The notes below the pieces were generated by a model. The model had not been told where the DNA came from. It did not search any database and saw nothing but the letters and a program-made list of their open reading frames with translations. From an uncultured Acidobacteriota bacterium (GTDB lineage Bacteria; Acidobacteriota; Vicinamibacteria; Fen-336), in NCBI GenBank assembly GCA_963720545.1, contig OY970399.1, forward strand, positions 1,952,001 to 2,016,000: 64,000 bases of DNA. Reading direction: 5' to 3'. This document shows positions 23,114-38,161 of the stretch, piece by piece. Each line of letters opens with the position of its first letter. Position 1 is the first letter of the stretch. The translations under genes were made by a program, and so were the position numbers.

Positions 23114-24331
23114 TCAGAAGCTCCAGGTCAGGCGGCTTTGCAGCGCGCCGCGCACCGGCGCCAGCCGGTATTCGCTGCTTTGCGGGCCGAGGAGCACGAT
23201 GCCATCGACGCCGATTGTGACACTCCCGGAGGGTGCGAACGAAACCCCGGGAGTGAGCGCTAGGCCGCCGTCGTCGATGCCGAGCACGGCGCGCAGGTTC
23301 GCGGTAAAGCGCTCGGCGATGTGCGCGCGCGACCAGCCGGCGTGCAGGTAGTTGCGGCGCAGGCCGAGGCCGCCGGAGTACGGCAGCGACGCGCCGGCAA
23401 GGTAGGCGGCGCGCGCCTGCTCGCGCACCGCCTGCGGCAGGGCCGGGTTCGCGGCGGTCGCGAAGCTGTTCGCAAGTGCCGCGCGATAAGCCGCCGCGGT
23501 GGAGTCGCCGTAGCCCTCGCCGTTGTAGAAGTATTCGAAGGAAAGCGCTGTCTCGCCCGAGGTGCGCAGCGCGCCAGCGGCGATGCGGAAGAAGTGCCGG
23601 TCGTCGCGCCGCGGCAGGAGTTCGGCACCGCGATAGAACGACGCTTCCGCGTGCGCGGCCCACAGCCCGCCGAGGCCGCGGGTCACGTCGAGCCCGGCGA
23701 GCGTGCGCAGGTTGCGGCCGCCGGACAGGATGACGGCGACATCGGTCGCACCAAAGAGGCGGCGCAGCCGCGCGGCGAGCGCGCGACGTTCGATGCGCGG
23801 CGCGTCGAACGGCAGGTCGCCCGGCTCGGTGCGGCCGCGCGACGCCACCAGGATGAGGCCGGTCTTGCTGTTTGGCACCACGTCGGCGCGCACCGCCCAG
23901 GCCCCTTGCTGTTCGAGGCCGGCGTTCAGCGGATTCTTCGGCGGCTCGATGCGGCTCGTCGGGTTCCAGGCAAACCCCGAGCCCCAGGCGATCCGCTGCT
24001 TGCCGACGCGCATGCCGAGCACCGAGCCCCACCAGTTCTGCGCATACGCCTGGCGGATCTTCACTTTGGCGTCGCCGCCGATGCGCTTCTCGACATAACC
24101 GCGGCCGACGAAGCGGGCGCTGCGCCACGACTGGCGCACGCCAGCCGTCAGCCGCAGCAGGTCTTCGGGATCGCGCAGCCCAAGCACGTTGTCGCGATTG
24201 AGCAGCGTTTCGACCGTCGGGTAGAGAAAGTTCTCGAAACCCAGTTCGGCAGCGGGCGCCGCCGCACGAGCGAGGCCGGGGGCGGATACGACCAGCAGCG
24301 CGGCGAGGACAACCGCGGCGTTGCTCCTCAC
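23114..24331 (-). CDS. Hypothetical outer-membrane beta-barrel protein
   Basis: Signal peptide; RVGKQRIAWGSGFAWNP; alternating beta strands; C-terminal LTWSF. Confidence 0.7.
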   Translation of the reverse strand: MRSNAAVVLAALLVVSAPGLARAAAPAAELGFENFLYPTVETLLNRDNVLGLRDPEDLLRLTAGVRQSWRSARFVGRGYVEKRIGGDAKVKIRQAYAQNWWGSVLGMRVGKQRIAWGSGFAWNPTSRIEPPKNPLNAGLEQQGAWAVRADVVPNSKTGLILVASRGRTEPGDLPFDAPRIERRALAARLRRLFGATDVAVILSGGRNLRTLAGLDVTRGLGGLWAAHAEASFYRGAELLPRRDDRHFFRIAAGALRTSGETALSFEYFYNGEGYGDSTAAAYRAALANSFATAANPALPQAVREQARAAYLAGASLPYSGGLGLRRNYLHAGWSRAHIAERFTANLRAVLGIDDGGLALTPGVSFAPSGSVTIGVDGIVLLGPQSSEYRLAPVRGALQSRLTWSF

Positions 24332-25047
24332 TCCCCCCGCTCCAGCGCGCTCGGCGTGAACATACGGTCGTCAAGGCGCGGCGCGTCGTCGATGGTGAGG
24401 AACAGCAAGACGGTGGCAGCGCCGGGCTCGACGGCGTTCTCCATCACCAGGCGCGTCGGCCGCACGCGCGTGCCCAGCCGCTGCGGCTCGGCAAGCGTGA
24501 GCCACTTGAGTTTCTTGCCGGCGATCGTGAAGTACTCGGTGCGCACCGGGAAGAAAGTACCGTCGGTGCGGACCCACAAGACCACGCGGTCGTAGGCGAT
24601 CTTGCGGTCCTTCGCCTTCAGTTCCAGCTTGTAGCACGCGAAGCCGCCCTGCTCTTCCTCGCCGACCAGGGCCGGCACGTAGTCGTTGATGAGCGACAGG
24701 CGGAAGATGTCGGCGTTGCTGAAGTCGCCGCCGCCGAAGTTCTGCCGCGCGCCGACGCGCACCACCTTCTCGCCGGAAGGTATGTAGAGCCAGGTGTTGT
24801 CGGCGTCGCGCAAATAGGCGGTGCCGCGTTCCTTGGGCGGCGCGGTGTAGCGGACCAGGCCCTTGTCGTCGCCCTTCTTCCAGCCGTTCAGCTCGACGAC
24901 GCGCTGCGGCTTCCCGGGCCGCTCGACAGTCATGCGAAAGGTGTAGGCCGCGTTCTCGCCGAGCACCGCGCGGTCGGAGCGGCGCACGATCTCGCTGGCA
25001 GAGGGCGCCGGCACAGCCAGGAACAGCGCGAGCAGCATCTCAAACAT
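24328..25047 (-). CDS. Outer membrane lipoprotein-sorting protein (LolA-like)
   Basis: [16 protein letters not shown]...WLYIP...[10 protein letters not shown]; context in a Lol-like ABC operon. Confidence 0.8.
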
Positions 25048-26305
25048 GGTGCAGCGCCTCGCGCGGTTCGAGCCGGCTCGCGGCATAAGCCGGATAGAGC
25101 GCCGCCAGCGACGACAACACAATGATGATGGCGGCCGCCGCCAGCACGCTGCCGGCTCGCAGCAGCGGATAGAGGCTGTCGCCGCCGGCCATCCAGGCGA
25201 GCGTCATCGTGTTCATGCGAATGCCGGTGGCGCCGTAGTACAGCACGAAGGCGCCGCCGGCCAGCACCCCGAGGACGGCCGCGACGATGCCGAGCGCGGC
25301 GCCCTCGAGGACGAACAGCCGGATGACGGCGCCGCGGCGCATGCCGAGGGCGCGAATGGTGCCGATCTCACGGGTGCGCTCGTGGACGCTCGCCAGCATC
25401 GCGTTCACCACGCCAACCGCCGCCGCCAGGAACAGGAACGTCGAGAGCACGTTGATCGCCGACTGGTTCGCCTCGATGATCGCGAACGAGAACCGGCCCG
25501 CCTGCTCCACGGTCTCGGCACGCAGCGCCTGGCCCGCGAGAGGCGGCGGCGCCGAGGCGACCAGCGATTGCACCAGGCCGCGCACCCGCGCGCGGCTCGC
25601 GCGCGACTGCGAGCGCAGCAGGATCTTGACGTTGGTGGCGGCGCCGGCCTTGTCCACCAGCGACTGGGCCGCGCCGAGCGAAACATACGCGGTGCTGTCG
25701 TACCAGGGCGCGCCCTTGTCGAAGATGCCGCACACCGTGACGTCGAGCGAGTTGACGGCGCCCTGCGCGGTCTGCACCACGAACGAGACGCTGTCGCCCA
25801 CCGACAGGCGCAGCTTGCGCGCCAGCGGCTGCGCGACATAAGCCTGGTCGTCGCCTTTGCCGAGAAAAACGCCGGCCGCGGGCGCCTGTGTACGCCGCAG
25901 TTCGTCTTCGCGCTGCGCGTCGATGCCGACGACCACCACCGGGCTCGAGCGGTTGCCGGAGACCACGGTGCCGCGCACCGCGAGATACGGCGTCGCCTTC
26001 ACGACACCGAGGGACGCGCCCGCGCTTTCGACCCGCGCGGCGAGCGCAGCACCGTCGGCGAACGCGGTTTCGCCGTAGGCGTCGAACGGGCTGTTCTGCG
26101 GCTCGAAATCGAGCGGCCGCGCCACCACCTGGACGTCGCCGGTCTGCACGGCGACGAGGGTTGCGGTCTGCTGCGCCGCAATGCCGTCCGCGAGGCCCTG
26201 CGCGGCGACCAGCGCGGCACAGCCGATGAGCATGGTGGCCGCGGCCAGGGCGCTGCGGCGCCGCGCACGCAGCAGGTTGCGAAAGGCCAGGCGCAGGAGG
26301 GCCAA
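25040..26305 (-). CDS. ABC transporter permease (FtsX/LolCE family)
   Basis: [42 protein letters not shown]. Confidence 0.9.
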
Positions 26306-26308
26306 GAG

Positions 26309-27583
26309 CTAGACTGCCCGCAGCGCGTCGGCTGGGCGCAGGCGCGCGGCGATGAGCGCAGGGCCGACGGCAGCGATCACGCACACCACCAGCATCAGCG
26401 ACGGGATGGTCGCAAGTTCGTGCCATGCGATGCGCGGGTACAGGTAGTCGCCTCCGTACGAGTAGCGCTGCGCTTCGCTGAACGCGGGGATGCCGACCTT
26501 GCCAAAGAAGAGGATGGCGCCCGCCCCGAAGGCCGTGCCGAGCACCGCACCGAGCACGCCGAGCACCACCGCCTCGAGGAGGAACAGCAGGCTGACCTGC
26601 GAGCGGCGCGCGCCGGTGGCGCGGATGGTGCCGATCTCCCGGGTGCGCTCGAACACTGCCATCAGCGCGGTGTTGGTGACTCCCGCGGCGACGATCAGCG
26701 CCATCAGCACGTTGGTGATCGAGGCGATGAAACGCGTGAGGGTGACGCCGCCGATGAACGGCCCGCCCATCTCTTCCCACGTGTAGGCGTGCGCATTCGT
26801 GCCCGCCGCATCGAAACGCGTGTTGAGCGAACGGGCAATGGCAGCCGAGTCGCCACCAGGGTCCCTCTGCCGCAGCACCAGCAGGCCGGCCTGGTCGTCG
26901 ACATCAAGGAGGCGCCGCACCGCGTCGATGTCGGCGTAGCAAGCACCCCATTCGTAGGCCTCGAGCCCCTTGACCGTCCAGATGCCGGTGACCACCAGCC
27001 GCACCGCGGTGAGCCGGCCGTCCGCGGCGTTGCCAAGCGCCGTGAGCGTGTCGCCGACACTCGCGCCGAGCTTTTTCGCGACGCCGCGGTTCAGCAACAC
27101 CCCGTAGCGGTTTGCACCGAACTCCCCGGCCGCGAAGAAATTCCCGGAGCGCAGCTCGATCGCAGGATAGACGGCGGCGCGCGCGCGCGGGTCGATGCCG
27201 ATGAGGACGCCGTCCATCGAGCTTTCGCCCTTCGAGAGGAGCGCGCCGATCATGAGGCGCGACAGGCCAGCCGCAAGGCGCGGCTCCGCCGCGACGACCT
27301 GCGCGATCATTGCCTCCGGATGCTGCAGCAGCCGATAGTTGTTCTGCGGCATCAGGAACGAGACCTTGCCGCCCTCGTCGGCGGCCGCGTCCCGGGCGTA
27401 GACCTGCACGTGGCCGAGGGTCGCGTTCTTCGCCGGTTCCACCACGCCGCGCTCCATCGCCGCGGTCCAGGCACGGCCGAGGATCATCAGGCCGATGCCG
27501 AGCGCCAGCGCCGACACCGTGAGCAGTGTGCGCCGCTTGTGGCGGGTGAGGTTGCGGCCGGCAAGGGTGAGGAAGAGGGGCAC
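26309..27583 (-). CDS. ABC transporter permease (FtsX/LolCE family)
   Basis: [37 protein letters not shown]. Confidence 0.9.
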
Positions 27584-27646
27584 TGCGGACGATGGTATCG
27601 GGAAAGCTGCCGCGGCGCGCATTGTATACTCGCTCTACCGTCGCTG

Positions 27647-29634: not shown

Positions 29635-29704
29635 TCGTCGGCTCTCCACGTCCGGAGACCGCCGATAGCAAAGAAGGTTGCCGGGTTTGTCCGTCCATGA
29701 GTGG

Positions 29705-30422
29705 ATGGGCCCACGCAAGCTACTGTTGGCCGCAAGCGCTTCCACGGCATTCACGGTGGCGGGCGCCGCCCGGCTTGCGGTCCCGCAAAGCGAGCACGCA
29801 GTTCGCCCGGGACTGGAAGCTTCGTTCGCGACCTTCAGGGGATGCTCGGCCACTCTCGTGGGACCGCGCGCGCTGTTGACGGCGGCTCACTGCGTTCAAG
29901 TGGGCTACCGGACCACGGTCCAGATGGGGTGCAAACAGTACTCAGGAGAGTGCAAAACGCCGCAGTCCTATCCGGGATCGGGTGCTGCTCACGACATTGC
30001 GCTTTGCAACATTGGCGAGAACCCCTGGCCGTACCTCGACACGATTTCCGTAACGGACCCGGTTCGGGAACACGACCGCGTGCTCCTGACGGGGTATGGA
30101 GGCCGGGCTGGTGTGGCCCTCGTCGCCGAAGTCACCACTGAGCTCAGCATCGACCGCCGGCGGTGCGTGGCTCGAACCTGGCGACAGCGGCGGCGCTGCC
30201 TACGTTCGCGGAGCGGACGGGTGGAGCGCAGTGGTCGCGGTCAACTCACATGTCGCCGGCCAACGATCGTACCTTGCAAATCTGGCGGCCGACCGCGAGT
30301 TCATCGAAGGATGGGCGGCCGACAATGGCGGAGTTTGCGGCGTGTCGAGCCCGGTTCCGGACAAATGCCTCACGGGACGAAGAAACCTGGCTGACGTCAT
30401 TTGCCGAAGGAGTGCCGAATGA
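29705..30422 (+). pseudogene. Exported trypsin-like (S1) serine protease with a +1 frameshift near 30153
   Basis: CSATLVGPRALLTAAHC and HDIALC in ORF 29678; PGDSGG in ORF 30096. The stop of the second frame overlaps the next ATG (ATGA 30419-30422). May be an assembly error. Confidence 0.75.
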
Positions 30423-31354
30423 CCCCTCTAATCAGATATCACCAAGTATCGGCGGCCGCTTTGTCGTTGTTCCTGCTCGCCGTTCCCCATAGTGCCAGCA
30501 GCGCTGCCGCAAGCGCTCAGTTCCAGATGACCATCGACGGCGGACACGCGTTCCTCAAGAACGGTTCCCAGCTGGTGGCGGGGACGGTGAAATACCCGGA
30601 TTCCACCACGGCAACTACCTGTATCTCGAAGAGGGCGACGCCGCAGCGATCGCGGGCGTGAAGTACATCGAGCCATCCGTGAAACCAGTAAACGGAATCG
30701 ACGTGCGGTACTGGTCGATCGAGGGCTACAAGGTCACGATTTGTCCCGATGGCGACTGCTCCTCAACTGCGGAGGTGACACTGCCGGCTGACACGCCGGA
30801 AAAAATGGCCTGCGCTCCTGGCGAAAACATGGACAACCTGTTGTACATCCCCTCGATGTAGAAGCTCAACCCGGGCAAGCCGCCCAAGGCCGACTGGCCC
30901 ACGAAGCTCTCGGCGCAAGTTCGTGTTGCAGGCGGGAGCACTCAAGATCGCCAACAGGTACGGTTGCTTTGCGTTCGTGGACCGAAACGGCAAGGAAGTC
31001 ATCCCTCGCCAACCCTTGGCCAGCAACATGGCGATTCTCTACAGCCTGCCTCTATCGAGCTACGTCGAGGTCCGTCTCGAGCCGCTCCCGGGCAGCGGCA
31101 AGGAGCCCACCGGCATTCGCATGACCCAGAAGAACGGGGCAATCACCACCACACTGACAACAGTCGTGCCGGGAACACCGCCGGACCCGCCACTGAAAGA
31201 CGGTGAGGAAGTCGTGCACTTCAAGATGTTTTACGAGCTGAATGGGGTGCCACCACGCGAACAAGTGCGCCTGATTTACCACCCGGTGCCCGGAGCCGCT
31301 GGGCGGCCAGCCAGGCCCGGCAGCGTATGCCCGCCAGCTCGCTTCTTCCGCTGA
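30419..31354 (+). pseudogene. Secreted hypothetical protein, interrupted (frameshift ~30600, in-frame TAG 30859-30861, frameshift ~30915)
   Basis: Signal peptide (AAALSLFLLAVPHSASS); fragments 30419.., 30658..30861 and 30923..31354 join into one Cys-containing reading ending VHFKMFYEL...GSVCPPARFFR. Confidence 0.6.
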
Positions 31355-31364
31355 TCCACTGACG

Positions 31365-34300
31365 TCAGCGAGCGTCTCGTTGCGCCGACGCCACGAACAG
31401 GCCGGCCCACGAGTGCCACGGCGCCCCCGCGTTGAGAAGCTCGAGTTGCGCTTGGCGCAACGCGTCGGCTGCCGAATGGCCCGCACGGTAGGAGTTGTGA
31501 AACCGGACCGAGAGGTCGCGCGCGTTCCGGTCCTCGAGTTTCCACAAGGAGCCGATGACCGCGGGCACGCCCGCGATCAGGAAGGGCCGAGCCAGCGTGA
31601 TCGGCCCTTCGCCGCGCAGGAGCGTGCCGACACCGGTCTCGCAACTGCTCAGGACGACGAGGCGGACACGACGCAGGTCGAGCCTCCCGAGCTGCTCGAG
31701 ATCGACCTGGTCGGTGCCGTCGCCAAGGATGAGCCGCGACCGCCAGGGTGAAATGTCGTTCACCCTGGCGTGGCCGGCGAAGTGAAAAATGTCGGCGCCA
31801 CCCATCGCCAGCCGCAGTCGCGCACTGCTGCTGTGCCCGGGCTCTATCAGCGTGCTGCGTGGATACAGGGCGGGCAATTTCATGGAGTTCGCGCGAAGAC
31901 TCGGGCAGGTCGGCCGTACCGCCGACGAGCAACGGCATCGGCGGGGATTGCCGGCGGGCAAGCCCCGACTTCGCGACCGATTGGTAGTAAGCGGCGCTCG
32001 GGATGGTGGAGACCACGTGGGTCTCGATCAGGTGGCGGCCGCTGCGGCGATCCTGCAGCGCGGCAAAGGGTACGGTCCCAATCAGCCGATCGGGAACGAT
32101 GATCAGGTTCGCGTCGTCGTCGAACAACTGCCGCTCCGGAAGGAGCAACCGCGAAAGCGCTGCCAGGGCATGGCGGATCGGTGGCGCTCGAATCGGCCGC
32201 GATGAGCGGAGCGTTGGTTCGGATCGCCTCCATCACGTCGGTTTCAGGCACGTCGCGAACTACCAGTTCGACCCGATGCCTGGAGATGACCCAGGTCAGC
32301 AGCCGGGCGGGAAGGGACGCATAGTAAAGGACAGCGGTTCCCTCCGGCAGCATGCTCCTGGAACTCGTCGAGACCCGTCACATGCAGGTGGCGGTGTCGA
32401 TACAGGGTGGCCTGCGACCTGCTTCGTTCGGCGACGGCGAACGCCGCCTTGCCGCCTTCCGGTTCGCGGCTGTAGCTGTCGATGAGCGCACCGTAGAGGT
32501 CTGCCGCGGTATCGACGAGGTACGCCCTGGAGTCATCGGCTTGCAGAGCGGCCAGCTGTTTTTCAACGCTCGCGATTCCCAGCACGAGTTGCCCGCGGGA
32601 CCGCGCAGGCAGCGCGGCTCGATCCAGGGCCCGCGCTGCCATGAGGTGGGTCGCAGGAACTTGTTCGGGTGAGCGCAGCGCAAAGAGCCGCAGCGCCTCG
32701 TCGAGAAGTGCCGCCGACTTCATGGGGGCTGTCTCGATCAGCGACTCGGCGCGGGTCCGCAGCACCCAGGGGGCGACAAATTCCTGCAAGGCAATGGACT
32801 CGATGTTCCGTGACACGCCTTCGGCTTCGTCGAGATCCCTTTGTGCCTCGACGTGATCGCCGAGGCGCGAGCGCAGCGACGACCTCACGACCAGGCTTTC
32901 GACGATCGTCGCGGCCGCGCCGCGCCGGCGGGCCTCGGAAACGGCTGCGTCCTGGAACAACAAGGCGCAGCGCACCAGGCCTTCGTCGGCCGCGTACTCG
33001 GCAATGTTTCGCAGCACGGTGAGGCGCCGGCGCCGGGTCAGCACCGAGGACAGGTTGTGGACCACCGCGTCGAGGCGCAGCCAGCCGTCGGCGCGGTTTC
33101 CCAACTCCCGCATCACCGCAGCCGTTGCGCTCAGAGCCGCCACGCGCTGCTCGGTTTCGCCGGTTTGCCCGAACACGACCGCGGCGCGTTGCAAGCTGCC
33201 GAGGCCCGCATCGGTGCGGCCCACCTGTCCAAGAGCGAGCCCCTGGAGCGCCAGTGCGCGGCCAAGGACCGAAGCGTAGCCGGCGCTTTCGGCATCGCGG
33301 CAAACCGCGGAGGCGCGCCGCAGGGAGCCGCGATAGTCGCCGGTCTGGTACTGGGCCACGGCCAGCTGGACGGCGGCGCGGAACCGGAACGGACTGCGCC
33401 CTTGGCGAAGTGCCGCCTCCGCGATGCGGAACTGCTCCTGAGCCAGCTCGAGTTTCGTTTCCTCGAGAAGGGTTACACCATTGGCGAAGGCGACCAGGCC
33501 GCGAGCCACGATCCGGCGCGACGGGGCGGCACTCGCGTCGAGCTGACGAACCGTGTCCGAAAGCAGCGGGTCGTGGGACGAACGGGCGATCATTCCCGCC
33601 AGGCGCTCGATGCGCGTGAGCATCGCCTCGGCGCGGCGATCGCCGGCAAGCATCGCGGTGCCCCAAAGCCCCAACAGGCGTTCCTCCATCAGGTGCTGCA
33701 AGGGCTCGGCGTTGCGGTTGACCAACTGCTGCGTCTGCGGCGCCAACTCCAACGTGCCAGCGAGCAGAGATGACTCCAGTGATTCCCACTCGCCGAGGGC
33801 GGACGTCGCGCGGTCGGACCTCGTCACCAGTTCGGCACGCCAGGCTCGATCGCCTTCGATGGCGAGCGCGTCCCGGTTCGCGCGCGCGGCCTCGTCGAAC
33901 AGCCCGAGGCGAGCAACGATGATCCCGAGATTGAAGGCCGCAGGCCGATGGCCAGGGTCGAGCTCGAGGGCTGTCAGCACCGCCTCCAGCGCGCGACACA
34001 GGGCCAGCGGTTCGTTCCTGCCGCCCGCAGTGGCCGCTTCGAACCAGGCGACTCCCAGGTCGTTCTGCACGTCGGCGTTGGCTGAAGTCGTTGCCGCGTC
34101 GAGATGAGACAGACGTGTGGCGGCAATGCCCGCGTCTCCCAGGAGCAACTCGAGCAAGGCTGCGTTCCCTGCTTCCGTTGGTTGCGAAGAGCCTGGCTCT
34201 CTTGCAACGAATGCCTGAATGGCGCCAAGCGTCGACGCGGAAAATATCTCCGCGCCGCGCGTGCCGTCGAACGGCCGGTAGCTGGCGCCCGACAGCCGCA

Positions 34301-34469
34301 GTTCAAACGGTCGGCGGTCCGCTCCCTCCAGAAAGACGCCGACGGCGGACTGCGTGCTGCTCCGACCGATCCGAACGCCCCCCGCGGAGTGAATCGTCGC
34401 AACCGCAAGCGCGGTCCCGGCCATCCAACGTCGCCGGGAGCGGGAAAGCATGAGCCGGAGGCTACCCAA
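31365..34469 (-). pseudogene. Exported TPR-CHAT (caspase-like) protease with three +1 frameshifts (~32357, ~32180, ~31872)
   Basis: TPR region in 32244..34469 (NDLGVAW, AAFNLG, AFAVAERSRS). CHAT pieces LPEGTAVLYY, LIIVPDRLIGTVPFAAL, DLPESSREL, FHFAGHA (His), VVLSSCETG (Cys), FLIAGVPAVIGSLW, AADALRQAQL, WAGL lie in successive frames. Confidence 0.8.
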
Positions 34470-34673
34470 GTTGGGAGGCGAAGGGCGTCCTGCTTCTTCG
34501 AATCGATCGTGCCGGCCCGGAAAAGAGGCGGCGGCTGTCCGTCTGTTATTTCAAAGGGATGGAAGCCCTCCCCAGGGGCGCGGTCACAGGAACCACGCTG
34601 GGCGCCATCCTCGTGTCGACTTCACCCCCGCGATTGGGTAAGAATTCCCCACCGTCGGGGGGCGCTACATCGC

Positions 34674-35600
34674 GTGAATCGGCCGTTCGCTCCGGAGACT
34701 TCTCGCCCTGGTCTCGAGCAGTTGTTCGTCGCTTCGCTCCCCGACGTCGAGGATGCCATTCGGCTGGTTGCCGGCCGCTGGCGCCTCGGCACCTCGGAAC
34801 AGGAGGACTTTGGTTCCGAGGTCAAGCTGGCACTCATCGAGGACGGCTACGACGCGCTGGCGCGCTTCGAGGGCCGTAGTTCGCTCAAGACCTACCTGGT
34901 GGTGGTGATTGAGCGCCTCTACCTCGACCGCTGCCGCAGGTTGTCCGGCCGCTGGCGGCCGTCGGCCGAAGCCGCGCGCCTCGGAGCCGCGGCGGTGATG
35001 CTCGAAACGCTGATTCACCGCGATCATCTGCCGCTTTCTGACGCGATCGAACAAGTGCGGCGCGAGCGCGGCGCGGAAACGGATGACGATGCGCTCTACA
35101 CGCTCGCGAGCCGGCTGCCGCCGCGCCAGCCGCGCGCCACCGAGACGCCGACGCCGCCCGCTGGTTTCGAACCGCGCGCGCCCGAGAGCGACTCGCCGGT
35201 CGCGAGCCTGCAGGGACGGGAGACGATCGCCCGCTGCCAGGCCGCGATCGCGGCGACCATGGCCGGTTTCGCGCCGATGGACCACCTCATCCTCCGGCTG
35301 CGCTTCGAAGACGACGTCTCGGTTGCCGACATCGCGCGCCTGCACGCTCTCGACCAGAAGGCGCTCTACCGGCGCCTCGACAAGATGATGGACGAGCTGC
35401 GCGCCGGCCTGGAACGGCACGGCGTGTCCTGGGCCGAGGTGAAGATCATGATCGAGCGCGGCCAGTGCCATCTGCGCCTGCCGGTGCGGAGGCGGACGGC
35501 GCGCACCGTGCACCACGGCTGGCGGCATCATGAGCTGCCCCCAGGCCGAAGTGCTGGCGACGTTCATCGAGGGCCGCCTCGCCGGCGCCGAACGCAATGA
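34674..35600 (+). CDS. ECF-type RNA polymerase sigma-70 factor, with an extended interdomain insert
   Basis: EQEDFGSEVKLALIEDGYDALARFEGRSSLKTYLVVVI (region 2); GRWRPSAEAARLG; LILRLRFEDDVSVADIARL...KALYRRL (region 4). The true stop may be 35533 if one base is missing near 35481. Confidence 0.85.
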   Translation: MNRPFAPETSRPGLEQLFVASLPDVEDAIRLVAGRWRLGTSEQEDFGSEVKLALIEDGYDALARFEGRSSLKTYLVVVIERLYLDRCRRLSGRWRPSAEAARLGAAAVMLETLIHRDHLPLSDAIEQVRRERGAETDDDALYTLASRLPPRQPRATETPTPPAGFEPRAPESDSPVASLQGRETIARCQAAIAATMAGFAPMDHLILRLRFEDDVSVADIARLHALDQKALYRRLDKMMDELRAGLERHGVSWAEVKIMIERGQCHLRLPVRRRTARTVHHGWRHHELPPGRSAGDVHRGPPRRRRTQ

Positions 35601-36369
35601 AACGGCCGCGCACGTTGCAAGCTGCGAGGATTGTTACGGCATCGTGCGGCGCTCGCTGCAGGAGCCGGAGGCTCGCCCGGCGCGCCGCGCCACGGAGAGC
35701 ACACCCGCCACGCGCTGGCTGTTGCCGGTCGCGGCAACGGTCGCACTCGCACTCGGCGGCTGGCAGCTCTTCGTCGCGTGGGAAGAACCGGAAACACCGC
35801 TCGACGGACTGGTGGCGGCGGTTGGCGAGCGGCGGCTGATCGAGCCGCGCCTGTCCGGCGGGTTCCGCTTTGGTCCGCTGGTGGCGGCGACGCGCGGCGG
35901 CGGTGGGCCGAACGGCTCCGACCTGAGCCTGCTCGCGGCCGCTGCGCGAGCGCAGGCTGCCGCCCACGCCGAACCGAGCGCGGCAAACCGGCGTGCCCTG
36001 GCCGCGGCGCAATTGCTGAAGGGCGACGTGGACGCTGCAGTCGCGGGCCTTGAAGCGCTCGTGAGGGAAGTGCCCGCCGACACTGCGGCAAGGAACGACC
36101 TGGCCGCGGCCTGGCTCGTGCACGGCCGCCAGCGTGGCAACGAGGCGAGCTATCGCGCCGCGCTCGACGCAGCGAACGCTGTTCTCGCCGCCGATCCAAA
36201 ATCGGCAGAGGCTCTCTTCAACAGGGCGCTGGCGCTCGAAGCCCTCGGCGACCGCGCCGCTGCCGCCGCGGCGTGGTCGGCCGTCACCGCCGACACCTCA
36301 CAGGAGCCAGGCTGGGCGGCGGTCGCCCGCGAACACGCCGCCGACCAGGGCGCGTCGTCGAACCCGTAA
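35530..36369 (+). CDS. Zinc-finger (zf-HC2) anti-sigma factor with TM and extracytoplasmic TPR domain
   Basis: CPQAEVLATFIEGRL...AHVASCEDC; TM WLLPVAATVALALGGW; TPR ARNDLAAAW, EALFNRALALEALG. Confidence 0.85.
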   Translation: MSCPQAEVLATFIEGRLAGAERNETAAHVASCEDCYGIVRRSLQEPEARPARRATESTPATRWLLPVAATVALALGGWQLFVAWEEPETPLDGLVAAVGERRLIEPRLSGGFRFGPLVAATRGGGGPNGSDLSLLAAAARAQAAAHAEPSAANRRALAAAQLLKGDVDAAVAGLEALVREVPADTAARNDLAAAWLVHGRQRGNEASYRAALDAANAVLAADPKSAEALFNRALALEALGDRAAAAAAWSAVTADTSQEPGWAAVAREHAADQGASSNP

Positions 36370-36422: not shown

Positions 36423-36692
36423 GTGGTGCGGGCGTTCTTCGAAATCCTGTTGATCCTGTTCGTGGTGCGCCTGGTGCTGCGGTTCATCGTGCCTATGTGG
36501 CGCGCCATGAGTTCGGCGCCGCCCGAGCCGCGCGGCGGCGCCGCGGCCACCGACCTGGTGTTCGACGCGATCTGCAACACCCACGTCCCGCGCAGCATGG
36601 CTTTGCGGGCGACCGTCGATGGCCGCGACGCCTACTTCTGTTCGCCCGAATGCCGCGCCAAGGCGAACGCCAGGCTCAGTCCGGTTTCGTGA
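36423..36692 (+). CDS. Small membrane protein with YHS/TRASH metal-binding domain
   Basis: N-terminal TM; DAICNTHV...YFCSPEC; AAGGAG RBS. Confidence 0.75.
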   Translation: MVRAFFEILLILFVVRLVLRFIVPMWRAMSSAPPEPRGGAAATDLVFDAICNTHVPRSMALRATVDGRDAYFCSPECRAKANARLSPVS

Positions 36693-36750
36693 CCCTTGAC
36701 TACGAAGCCTCTAACGCGCGAGAGTTTGCACGACAATGGAGGCTATGACC

Positions 36751-37035
36751 ATGGGTGAAGCGCTGGGAATGGTGGAAACGAGGGGCCTCGTTGGGCTGAT
36801 CGAGGCGTCCGACGCCATGGTCAAGGCGGCGAAAGTCACCCTGGTGGGCTACGAGAAGATCGGCTCCGGCTACGTGACCGCCCTGGTGCGCGGCGACGTC
36901 GCCGCCGTCAAGGCCGCGACCGACGCAGGAGCCGCTGCCGCGCGCCGGGTTGGCGAACTGGTCTCGGTGCACGTCATTCCGCGTCCGCACTCGAACCTCG
37001 AGGACATCTTCCCGATCGGCAAGCAGGGCAAGTAG
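36751..37035 (+). CDS. Bacterial microcompartment hexameric shell protein BMC-H (EutM/PduA/CcmK family)
   Basis: [27 protein letters not shown]...[15 protein letters not shown]...[16 protein letters not shown]. Confidence 0.95.
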
Positions 37036-37054
37036 TCGGAAGAGCGAGCCGGCC

Positions 37055-37321
37055 ATGATCCTGGCGCGAGTCGTCGGCACGGTTGTCGCCACGCGCAAGG
37101 ACGAGAAGCTCGTCGGCGCGAAGCTGCTGGTGGTGCGTCCGGTGGATGCCGCGGGCAAGCTCGAGGGCAGCTACATCGTCGCGGTGGACACGGTGAACGC
37201 CGGCCGCGGCGACAACGTCCTCATCGTCTCCGGCTCGTCGGCGCGCATGGCTGCCGGGCAGAAGGACGCCCCGGTCGACGCGTCCATCATCGGCGTCGTC
37301 GACCAGGTGGACGTCTCCTGA
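37055..37321 (+). CDS. BMC-P pentameric vertex protein (EutN/CcmL family), copy 1
   Basis: MILARVVGTVVATRKDEKLVGAKLL...VAVDTVNAGRGD...GSSAR...PVDASIIGVVD. Confidence 0.95.
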   Translation: MILARVVGTVVATRKDEKLVGAKLLVVRPVDAAGKLEGSYIVAVDTVNAGRGDNVLIVSGSSARMAAGQKDAPVDASIIGVVDQVDVS

Positions 37322-37581
37322 TGCTGCTTGCCCGCGTCACCGGCACCGTCGTCGCCAGCCACAAGGACCCGAACCTCGAGGGCACGCGGATGCTGCTCAT
37401 CCAGCCGCTCGGCGCCGACCGCAAACCCGTGGGCCGGCAGGTGGTGGCGCTCGACGCCATCGGCGCCGGCGCAGCGGAGGAAGTCTTCTACGTGCGCGGG
37501 CGCGAGGCAGCTTTGCCGTTCCTGCCGCGCGAGGTGCCGTCCGACGCCACCGTAATCGGCATCGTCGACCCGGTGAAGTAG
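37321..37581 (+). CDS. BMC-P pentameric vertex protein (EutN/CcmL family), copy 2
   Basis: MLLARVTGTVVASHKDPNLEG...VALDAIGAG...GREA...PSDATVIGIVD. Confidence 0.95.
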   Translation: MLLARVTGTVVASHKDPNLEGTRMLLIQPLGADRKPVGRQVVALDAIGAGAAEEVFYVRGREAALPFLPREVPSDATVIGIVDPVK

Positions 37582-37587
37582 CGCGCG

Positions 37588-37875
37588 ATGCTGATCGGCC
37601 GGGTGGTCGGCGAAGTGGTCGCGACGCAGAAGAACCCGAAGCTCGAGGGCACCAAGCTGCTGCTGGTGCAGCCGCTCTCCCTGGAGGGCGAGGCGCGCGG
37701 CGCAGCGGTGATGGCGGTCGACACCGTCGACGCCGGAACCGGCGACCGGGTGCTCCTCGTCCAGGACGGCAAGGCCGCGCAGCAGGCGCTCGGCCGCGGC
37801 GCGGCAGCCGTCGATGCGGCGATCGTCGGCGTGGTGGACGAGGTACAGTTGGAGGATCCTGGCGATGGATCCTGA
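37588..37875 (+). CDS. BMC-P pentameric vertex protein (EutN/CcmL family), copy 3
   Basis: MLIGRVVGEVVATQKNPKLEG...AVDTVDAGTGDRVL...VDAAIVGVVD. Confidence 0.95.
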   Translation: MLIGRVVGEVVATQKNPKLEGTKLLLVQPLSLEGEARGAAVMAVDTVDAGTGDRVLLVQDGKAAQQALGRGAAAVDAAIVGVVDEVQLEDPGDGS

Positions 37876-38161
37876 GCGCATCCAGAAACTGACCGAAGAA
37901 GTGCTCGCACAGCTCGGCGCCGGTGCCAGCGCCGGCGAGAACCAGCACCCGCCCGATCTCGAGGCACGGGTGAGCGCGCTCGAACGCGCGGTGCTCGGCA
38001 AGTCGGCCGCTGCGGCCGAAGCACCGGCCCAACCCGCGGCGGTACAGCATCCGAGCCACTACGTCCTGCGCGTCGTCGGCGGTGTCGTGGGCGAACCCTG
38101 CATCCTCGAGCCCGACCAGCCCTGCACCCACAGCCGCCGCTGCCAGTCTCTCGGCTACTAG
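37865..38161 (+). CDS. Small BMC-associated protein with encapsulation-peptide-like N-terminal helix and Cys/His-rich C-terminus
   Basis: MDPERIQKLTEEVLAQL; DLEARVSALERAV; HPSH; CILEPDQPCTHSRRCQSLGY; overlaps BMC-P3 end, GGAGG upstream. Confidence 0.7.
   Translation: MDPERIQKLTEEVLAQLGAGASAGENQHPPDLEARVSALERAVLGKSAAAAEAPAQPAAVQHPSHYVLRVVGGVVGEPCILEPDQPCTHSRRCQSLGY

Follow-up and report, generated by a model that had tools for sequence, protein, structure and literature searches.

Whether a CHAT protease encoded beside a sigma factor and its anti-sigma factor acts on that pair, and by which route, is the question raised by five genes at 29705..36369 of a 64,000-nucleotide stretch, hereafter the window, from an uncultured Acidobacteriota bacterium (GCA_963720545.1, contig OY970399.1, positions 1,952,001 to 2,016,000). 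The window lies within one contig of 4.09 Mb in a genome that is 94.8% complete, and the closest relatives are titled Acidobacteriota, mainly Vicinamibacteria and Thermoanaerobaculia. The genes of a trypsin-like protease and a partner protein on the plus strand converge with a TPR-CHAT gene on the minus strand, 10 bases off, and a sigma/anti-sigma pair is divergent from the CHAT gene. Open reading frames and Pfam matches bore out the five genes, their order, their strands and the motifs (FHFAGHA, LSSCETG and CPPARFFR) given in a preliminary description of this DNA. With a probability of roughly 0.55, the locus is a split trans-envelope switch of the DdvS/DdvA type, in which CHAT would cut the linker of the anti-sigma factor in trans, probably after Arg122, and RseP would then free the sigma factor to induce itself, the trypsin and the partner.

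The model for this reading is DdvA of Myxococcus xanthus, which consists of a CHCC zinc anti-sigma domain, one membrane helix, a periplasmic stem, TPRs and CHAT (PDB 8ROT, 8RW5 and 8RLZ; PMC11506125, cited here, like the other papers, from excerpts). DdvA forms a stem-mediated dimer, its CHAT site is without the three-helix motif, and each active site faces the linker V129-P140 of the other protomer. RseP degrades truncated DdvA in Myxococcus, and self-cleavage by CHAT in trans has been proposed but is unproven (PMC11506125). The same paper names separase as a CHAT-family relative that cuts after Arg.

The anti-sigma factor of the window (279 amino acids) has its CHAT encoded apart, in the divergent gene. 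Pfam analysis gave a weak zf-HC2 match (E 7e-4, below the cut-off), a hydrophobic helix and TPR matches. The zinc ligands H/C/C are invariant in 27/27 short anti-sigma factors, with H28, C32 and C35 numbered as in DdvA, and the zinc domain matches 8RLZ, RslA and RsiW. A profile of these 27 proteins aligns to DdvA 8-282 as one stretch (E 1.2e-20), the single membrane helix being followed by a linker and stem homologous to DdvA 93-280. An Arg in this linker is kept in 26 of the 27; in the window it is Arg122 (codon 35893-35895), whose offset from DdvA R114 places it close to the beginning of V129-P140, the DdvA stretch nearest the dyad. Residues 100-274 also align to the N-terminal part of a CHAT allele (probability 97.8), revealing a linker and stem shared by the two proteins. 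RseP is encoded in the genome.

The CHAT domain is recognised by Pfam (PF12770, E 4e-35) and carries both dyad motifs. The retained His and Cys described earlier are thus real features of the window, and the dyad recurs in 43 of 44 long CHAT frames, the one exception being a frame truncated at the edge of its contig. Among solved structures, the CHAT profile again matches DdvA best (8ROT, E 4e-21). Because the anti-sigma and CHAT profiles both match DdvA and the linker and stem are common to both proteins, the locus is, as judged from sequence, DdvA cut in two with its stem duplicated. The linker motif is lost in about half of the stand-alone CHATs. Export of the window CHAT to the periplasm is suggested by an N-terminal hydrophobic stretch, weak here (11-residue mean 1.8 in allele P0168 vs 2.6 in partner and 2.4 in trypsin alleles), which occurs in 20/20 long stand-alone CHATs listed and is clear in relatives. 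Twin-arginine export of this protein was considered and rejected, since the SRRRW of the window reads SRQRW in P0168 and P0170. A further CHAT gene of the genome looks unrelated (G000:C1:1125718-1128860, minus strand, open frame of 833 amino acids) and is divergent from another ECF-like (extracytoplasmic function) sigma gene and secreted proteins; a copy of the partner was not found nearby.

The preliminary description had asked for conservation of the gene set, and the parts do co-occur widely. A search with the sigma factor hit 27 of the 61 related genomes (5 weakly) and 273 stretches of a species-level collection, the best 80 of which were kept as the locus set; these are nearly all Acidobacteriota, include close kin and are not independent. 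Among them, 22 have the anti-sigma factor and CHAT fused in the DdvA layout and 24 have them split as in the window, 15 have a short anti-sigma factor with no CHAT in the available DNA, 9 are cut by contig ends and 10 have no recognised zinc anti-sigma factor. In the 24 split loci CHAT lies downstream in 16, upstream in 2, divergent as in the window in 4 and convergent in 2; the split pairs of L058 and L066 are intact. The partner adjoins CHAT in 41/48 loci with CHAT (in 4 of the 7 misses the DNA ends) and is present in only 1/32 without it. A reverse search from the partner found CHAT within 1.5 kb in 24/29 loci and a CHAT-type stem in one more, with a profile built from CHAT-adjacent seeds. 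The grouping of the module genes is not due to chance. Single-sequence searches with the locus gave no matches.

A plausible course of events can be proposed. At rest, the short anti-sigma factor would hold the sigma factor through its cytoplasmic zinc domain, as homology and gene coupling suggest. The exported TPR-CHAT may dock on the periplasmic stem of the anti-sigma factor like a second DdvA protomer, which is possible because CHAT carries its own copy of linker and stem, and its dyad would thereby be brought to the anti-sigma linker. An outside cue would align the dyad, CHAT would cut the linker, most likely after Arg122, and RseP would then cut the membrane helix and free the sigma factor, an action known for truncated DdvA in Myxococcus only. 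The freed sigma factor would transcribe its own operon and the trypsin-partner operon, ahead of both of which a motif is seen. Finally, the partner may reset or tune CHAT, with the trypsin among interchangeable output proteases.

The same neighbourhoods may be read in reverse, with CHAT as an output and not the trigger. Another site-1 protease would then release the sigma factor, and CHAT, the partner and the variable protease would form a secreted effector set in which CHAT matures the partner or a second protease. Such an arrangement would fit the 15 of 80 loci in which short anti-sigma factors lack a nearby CHAT, the promoter-like motif ahead of divergent stand-alone CHAT genes in L120, L126 and L127, and the partner loci, which almost always lie by CHAT and include a C14 caspase next to the partner (L091) or fused with it (L099). 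SAVED-CHAT, which activates the second protease PCaspase, is a precedent (bioRxiv 10.1101/2023.06.23.546230). Nevertheless, CHAT is bound up with the anti-sigma factor itself: the two are fused in DdvA and in 22 of the loci, they have the stem in common, and the linker Arg is conserved. We regard CHAT as an output as fairly unlikely.

Table 1. Coordinates of the five genes and the predicted promoters, as positions of the window.
Feature	Positions	Strand	Description
Predicted ECF-type promoter AGAAG-n11-TGTCCGTCCAT	29671..29698	+	Short spacer ahead of trypsin; matrix score 18.4, genome rank 5
Secreted trypsin-like serine protease	29705..30492	+	Pfam Trypsin; two frameshifts; 261-aa allele P0156 matches in three frames
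CHAT partner	30419..31354	+	Secreted all-beta, unnamed family (FxGL...HxP...HF..Y...CPP); two frameshifts and one TAG; intact 311-aa allele P0153
Stand-alone TPR-CHAT	31365..34451	-	Weak N-terminal export signal, DdvA-type linker (TRG) and stem, TPR array, CHAT with His-Cys dyad; Pfam CHAT; alleles P0170, P0154
Predicted ECF-type promoter GGAAAA-n11/12-TGTCCGTCTGT	34518..34546	+	Ahead of sigma; score 20.0, genome rank 2
Sigma-70 family factor	34674..35533	+	Regions 2 and 4, conserved central three-helix domain (G.W R.S..A...G); one frameshift near 3' end
Short anti-sigma	35530..36369	+	CHCC zinc domain (C3, H28, C32, C35), one membrane helix, linker, stem TPRs, no CHAT; intact

The sigma factor belongs to a distinctive family. 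Once its frameshift is corrected as in other runs, the gene ends in an ATGA overlap with the anti-sigma gene, and the protein has about 285 amino acids (247-296 over the matched part of the family). Region 2 is matched weakly, with TIGR02937 just under its cut-off in the window and above it in L036; across the family, Pfam recognises region 4 (r4_2) in 75/78 and region 2 in 59/78 members at E up to 1. The most conserved motif follows directly after region 2, and the predicted structure places an ordered three-helix domain at residues 105-147, between regions 2 and 4. Foldseek ranked the region-3-bearing SigD, sigma32 and sigma28 first, and a second comparison tied them with ECF factors; hhalign was negative for region 3, and Pfam r3 was not among the 25 families listed out of 91. 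With the structural ranking ambiguous and no recognition of region 3 by sequence profiles, an identity of the domain with region 3 is not supported. The earlier label ECF is apt as regards regions 2 and 4, the coupled anti-sigma factor and the bipartite promoter motif, but loose given the ordered extra domain. Some members of this family (L065, L051 and L054) have no anti-sigma factor and are divergent from a pair of ECF sigma and Ser-Thr kinase genes; for the kinase pair of L041, Pfam matched Sigma70_ECF and Pkinase.

Promoter sites were scored with a matrix trained on relatives only, the window being excluded, and ranked over the 4.09 Mb genome. The site ahead of the sigma gene ranked first with the initial 7-site matrix, and a site of the type found before trypsin has a chance of about 4e-5 of falling in a 65-nt spacer. 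When motifs were counted without guidance ahead of the sigma genes, two emerged: GGGAAA-n10/11-nGTCCGTCTA and, apart from it, the housekeeping-type TTGTCA-n17-TGnATAAT. The ECF-type motif precedes 18/77 sigma genes and 36/70 anti-sigma genes, against 0/140 coding controls, and its position ahead of anti-sigma genes could explain why many of these sigma factors end in a conserved R-P-S tail. At the locus itself no sigma-70 consensus promoter was found, and terminator-like sites occurred at chance frequency. It is conceivable that trypsin and partner are not targets of the window sigma factor, that the motif belongs to a general envelope-stress ECF factor and that adjacency is a by-product of rearrangement. 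Such a motif, GGAA-n16/17-CGTC, resembles common ECF promoters and the DdvS promoter GTAA-n16-CGT (PMC6061681), and it stands ahead of other ECF genes in L070, L072 and L073. However, two of the five best sites of the genome lie within the 6.7 kb locus, which is not expected of a global regulon, and the link between partner and CHAT stands regardless; we consider a general ECF factor quite improbable. The earlier proposal that the ECF factor induces the module thus agrees with the motif ahead of the sigma gene and the trypsin-partner operon, but not for CHAT, before which there is none.

The partner is the least familiar component. Its family is divergent, with about 300 amino acids and 317 clusters at 50% identity, and matched neither Pfam (10/10 searched), NCBIfam (3/3), PADLOC nor Atlas. 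Within 107 aligned partners the Cys (C304) is kept in 107, His64 in 103 and His267 in 102. The model is all beta (predicted local distance difference test score, pLDDT, 81); Foldseek returned no match at E <=0.001 in PDB and BFVD, which does not prove a new fold, and the best VIA structural match among 48,161 chains reached Z 3.1 over 75 residues (root-mean-square deviation 3.2). By crude rules, the N-termini of the 107 partners comprise 60 with no signal (for example in L108), 26 Tat-like, 13 Sec-like, 2 lipoprotein-like and 6 other. The partner is most likely a dedicated CHAT companion, presumably a regulator that resets or tunes CHAT. A modelled complex of TPR-CHAT (P0170 395-1076) with partner (P0153 31-311) scored 0.00, which speaks neither for nor against their binding. 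The preliminary description had the secreted protein as a possible CHAT substrate, a proposal so far unsupported; a C-terminal loop acting as Arg bait was rejected, since R[GSA] within 25 residues before the Cys occurs in 27/107 partners, which is the background frequency (223/881 windows). At L120:1614-4796 (minus strand) there are three partner paralogs in tandem, placed after a single divergent CHAT gene. Contigs of other runs diverge by about 8-11% over the partner gene (window 30445-31350) vs mostly <3% over the TPR array or the sigma gene, a hint of faster change.

A more far-reaching possibility is that the module forms a protease cascade in the envelope, a counterpart outside the cytoplasm to SAVED-CHAT/PCaspase/PCi. 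The His-His-Cys partner, with a new fold, would then serve as a bait or switch: secreted proteases of whatever class, from the cell itself or from elsewhere, would act on it, CHAT would be turned on or off as a result, and the sigma factor, of a new subtype with three domains, would be released. We regard this as tentative and rather unlikely; if true, the acidobacterial sensors of the DdvA type would have their missing ligand in the partner.

Because the DdvA regulon gives protection from phage Mx4 (PMC11506125), the homology also invites an anti-phage reading, in which TPR-CHAT senses a periplasmic phage protein and the sigma factor turns on defence genes. The patchy distribution of the module would suit it, the partner, searched independently, being present in 19/301 genomes of the phylum, as would the lower G+C at the trypsin-partner end (partner gene 0.61 vs genome 0.687). 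Nevertheless, the local targets are secreted proteins, PADLOC gave 0 matches for 10 module proteins, and the 94.8% complete genome yielded no match to either marker searched, cas1 and the SMODS cyclase, the former in line with the earlier remark that cas genes are absent. Only a subset of DdvA-like pairs is reported near defence genes in the excerpts of PMC11506125. An alarm of this kind is accordingly improbable.

The trypsin shows the triad motifs TAAHC, HDIAL and GDSGG. In relatives the next same-strand gene after the partner is a Pfam protease in 11/26 loci (M64 in 3, S8 in 1, trypsin in 3 and C39-like in 4), a raw count without background rate from a scan of 34 of 35 listed genes, 8 genes being on the other strand; two further loci gave weak metalloprotease matches. 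The trypsin would thus be one of several interchangeable secreted output proteases; the window copy suits this variable slot, but sits upstream of the partner. After the partner in L056 (13099-13896) lies a gene that is trypsin-like by eye with Cys as nucleophile (GDCGSP) and without a Pfam match. In L044, L048 and L050, a C39-like protease gene is followed by a sigma-54-type activator gene with the ECF-type motif ahead of it.

Compared with intact near-identical alleles (CHAT P0170, 1076 amino acids; partner P0153, 311; trypsin P0156, 261), four of the five genes are broken, with at least 9 breaks in 6.7 kb, and the anti-sigma gene is the sole unbroken one. Trypsin has frameshifts at ~30150 and ~30400, the partner two frameshifts and one TAG at ~30595, 30859-61 and ~30919, CHAT at least three breaks (~32357, ~32177 and 31868-31972) and sigma one frameshift at ~35480-84. 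These breaks are quite probably local consensus errors. Were they real, the genes would be pseudogenes of a module decaying in this strain, which is compatible with either mechanism; we hold this for somewhat unlikely. Decay would explain why 293 kb of 249 other genes contain only 5 frame changes (a count biased against heavily broken genes) and why the partner stop is identical in a second assembly (P0152), and at 30919 and 31868 some covering runs do not show the indel at that position. A sample of 20 genes of the genome had no frame change. However, contigs of four other runs, among the rows listed, have indels at six or more break sites (30150, 30595, 30919, 31868, 31950-72 and 35480-84), though not in every covering run, and near-identical alleles of three other assemblies (P0154, P0168 and P0169) are broken elsewhere while P0170 is whole. 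Breaks at differing places in other assemblies are the expected pattern for consensus errors in a strain-variable stretch.

Several observations weigh against the split DdvA-type switch. Of the 15 loci with a short anti-sigma factor and no CHAT found, about 9 have 7 kb clear on both sides. The CHAT activity of DdvA is itself unproven, its active site being described as incomplete (PMC11506125). The 60 of 107 partners without room for a signal peptide are hard to reconcile with a periplasmic target. The matrix scan found no motif ahead of the window CHAT or anti-sigma gene. Elsewhere the motif stands before other ECF genes and before genes of sigma-54-type activators; it may thus belong to a different sigma factor, and its ownership by that of the window is inferred. 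Finally, the density of frame breaks is about 70-fold above that of the rest of the genome, with the bias noted above.

Outside the module, window 36423-38161 holds what we take to be a small YHS/TRASH-like protein, followed by a bacterial microcompartment shell cluster (one BMC-H-like and three EutN/CcmL-like proteins) and then a DinB-like polymerase. An operon on the minus strand at 23114-27622 presumably encodes a LolA-like protein, an outer-membrane protein and a pair of FtsX/LolE-like permeases; it lies beside genes for FabH and an alpha/beta hydrolase.

Among known systems, Craspase (type III-E Csx29/Csx30/CASP-sigma) also has a TPR-CHAT that cuts a sigma inhibitor; unlike the system proposed here, it is RNA-triggered and cytoplasmic. 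Identity of the window CHAT with Csx29 was not supported, NCBIfam giving 20 bits vs a cut-off of 300 over a C-terminal piece only, in a genome where cas1 was not found. The type III-B SAVED-CHAT/PCaspase/PCi/PCc-sigma system likewise clusters CHAT, a second protease, a small dedicated partner and a sigma factor, but it is cytoplasmic, CRISPR-linked and triggered by cyclic oligoadenylate, and PCi is predicted to be CI-2-like whereas the partner is an all-beta protein of ~300 amino acids (bioRxiv 10.1101/2023.06.23.546230). ECF54, the sole ECF group tied to CHAT in the text and supplement passages of PMC7826278, has its sigma gene beside TPR-CHAT and a second protease (a subtilase), and proteolytic control has been proposed (PMC7826278; PMC8999054). 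It is confined to Actinobacteria, without an anti-sigma factor and with the promoter GTATCAG/CTCC, whereas the locus has an anti-sigma factor, another motif and acidobacterial relatives. EACC2-caspase neighbourhoods with ECF sigma factors comprise other domains (EACC2, CHASE2 and DUF1822), and the passages of PMC8195603 that describe them name neither CHAT-bearing anti-sigma factors nor Acidobacteria.

DdvS/DdvA shares with the locus the zinc domain, membrane helix, linker and stem, TPR-CHAT dyad, coupled sigma gene, a promoter of the GxAA-n16-CGT type and RseP in the genome. The earlier remark that no functional description was known therefore falls, as a homologous pair has been solved structurally and the same mechanism of CHAT followed by RseP proposed, though unproven (PMC11506125; PMC6061681). 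The logic and structure are already published for the fused form and the locus is not categorically new. In the literature searched, most subscription journals lying outside it, there was no report of the split form, its acidobacterial spread, the promoter, the partner or the variable protease slot; in the excerpts of PMC11506125, DdvA-like proteins are reported only from Myxococcota and one Comamonas, and table S7 is without Acidobacteria terms. The locus differs from DdvS/DdvA in that anti-sigma factor and protease are separate, divergent genes, the sigma factor has ~285 amino acids and an extra central domain vs 182 amino acids in DdvS, and a conserved partner and secreted protease take the place of the CBASS/CRISPR island (CBASS, cyclic-oligonucleotide-based antiphage signalling system). 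Cleavage in trans could not be tested in fused DdvA, where protease and substrate belong to a single polypeptide and the signal is unknown (PMC11506125); in the split form the two come apart, and a single residue stands out as the likely cut site. With the split form, a system described from Myxococcota reaches a large soil phylum. Compared with DdvA, it offers three further handles: a near-obligate partner whose fold is unrecognised, a sigma factor with an unusual conserved central domain, and a predicted promoter that could drive reporters.

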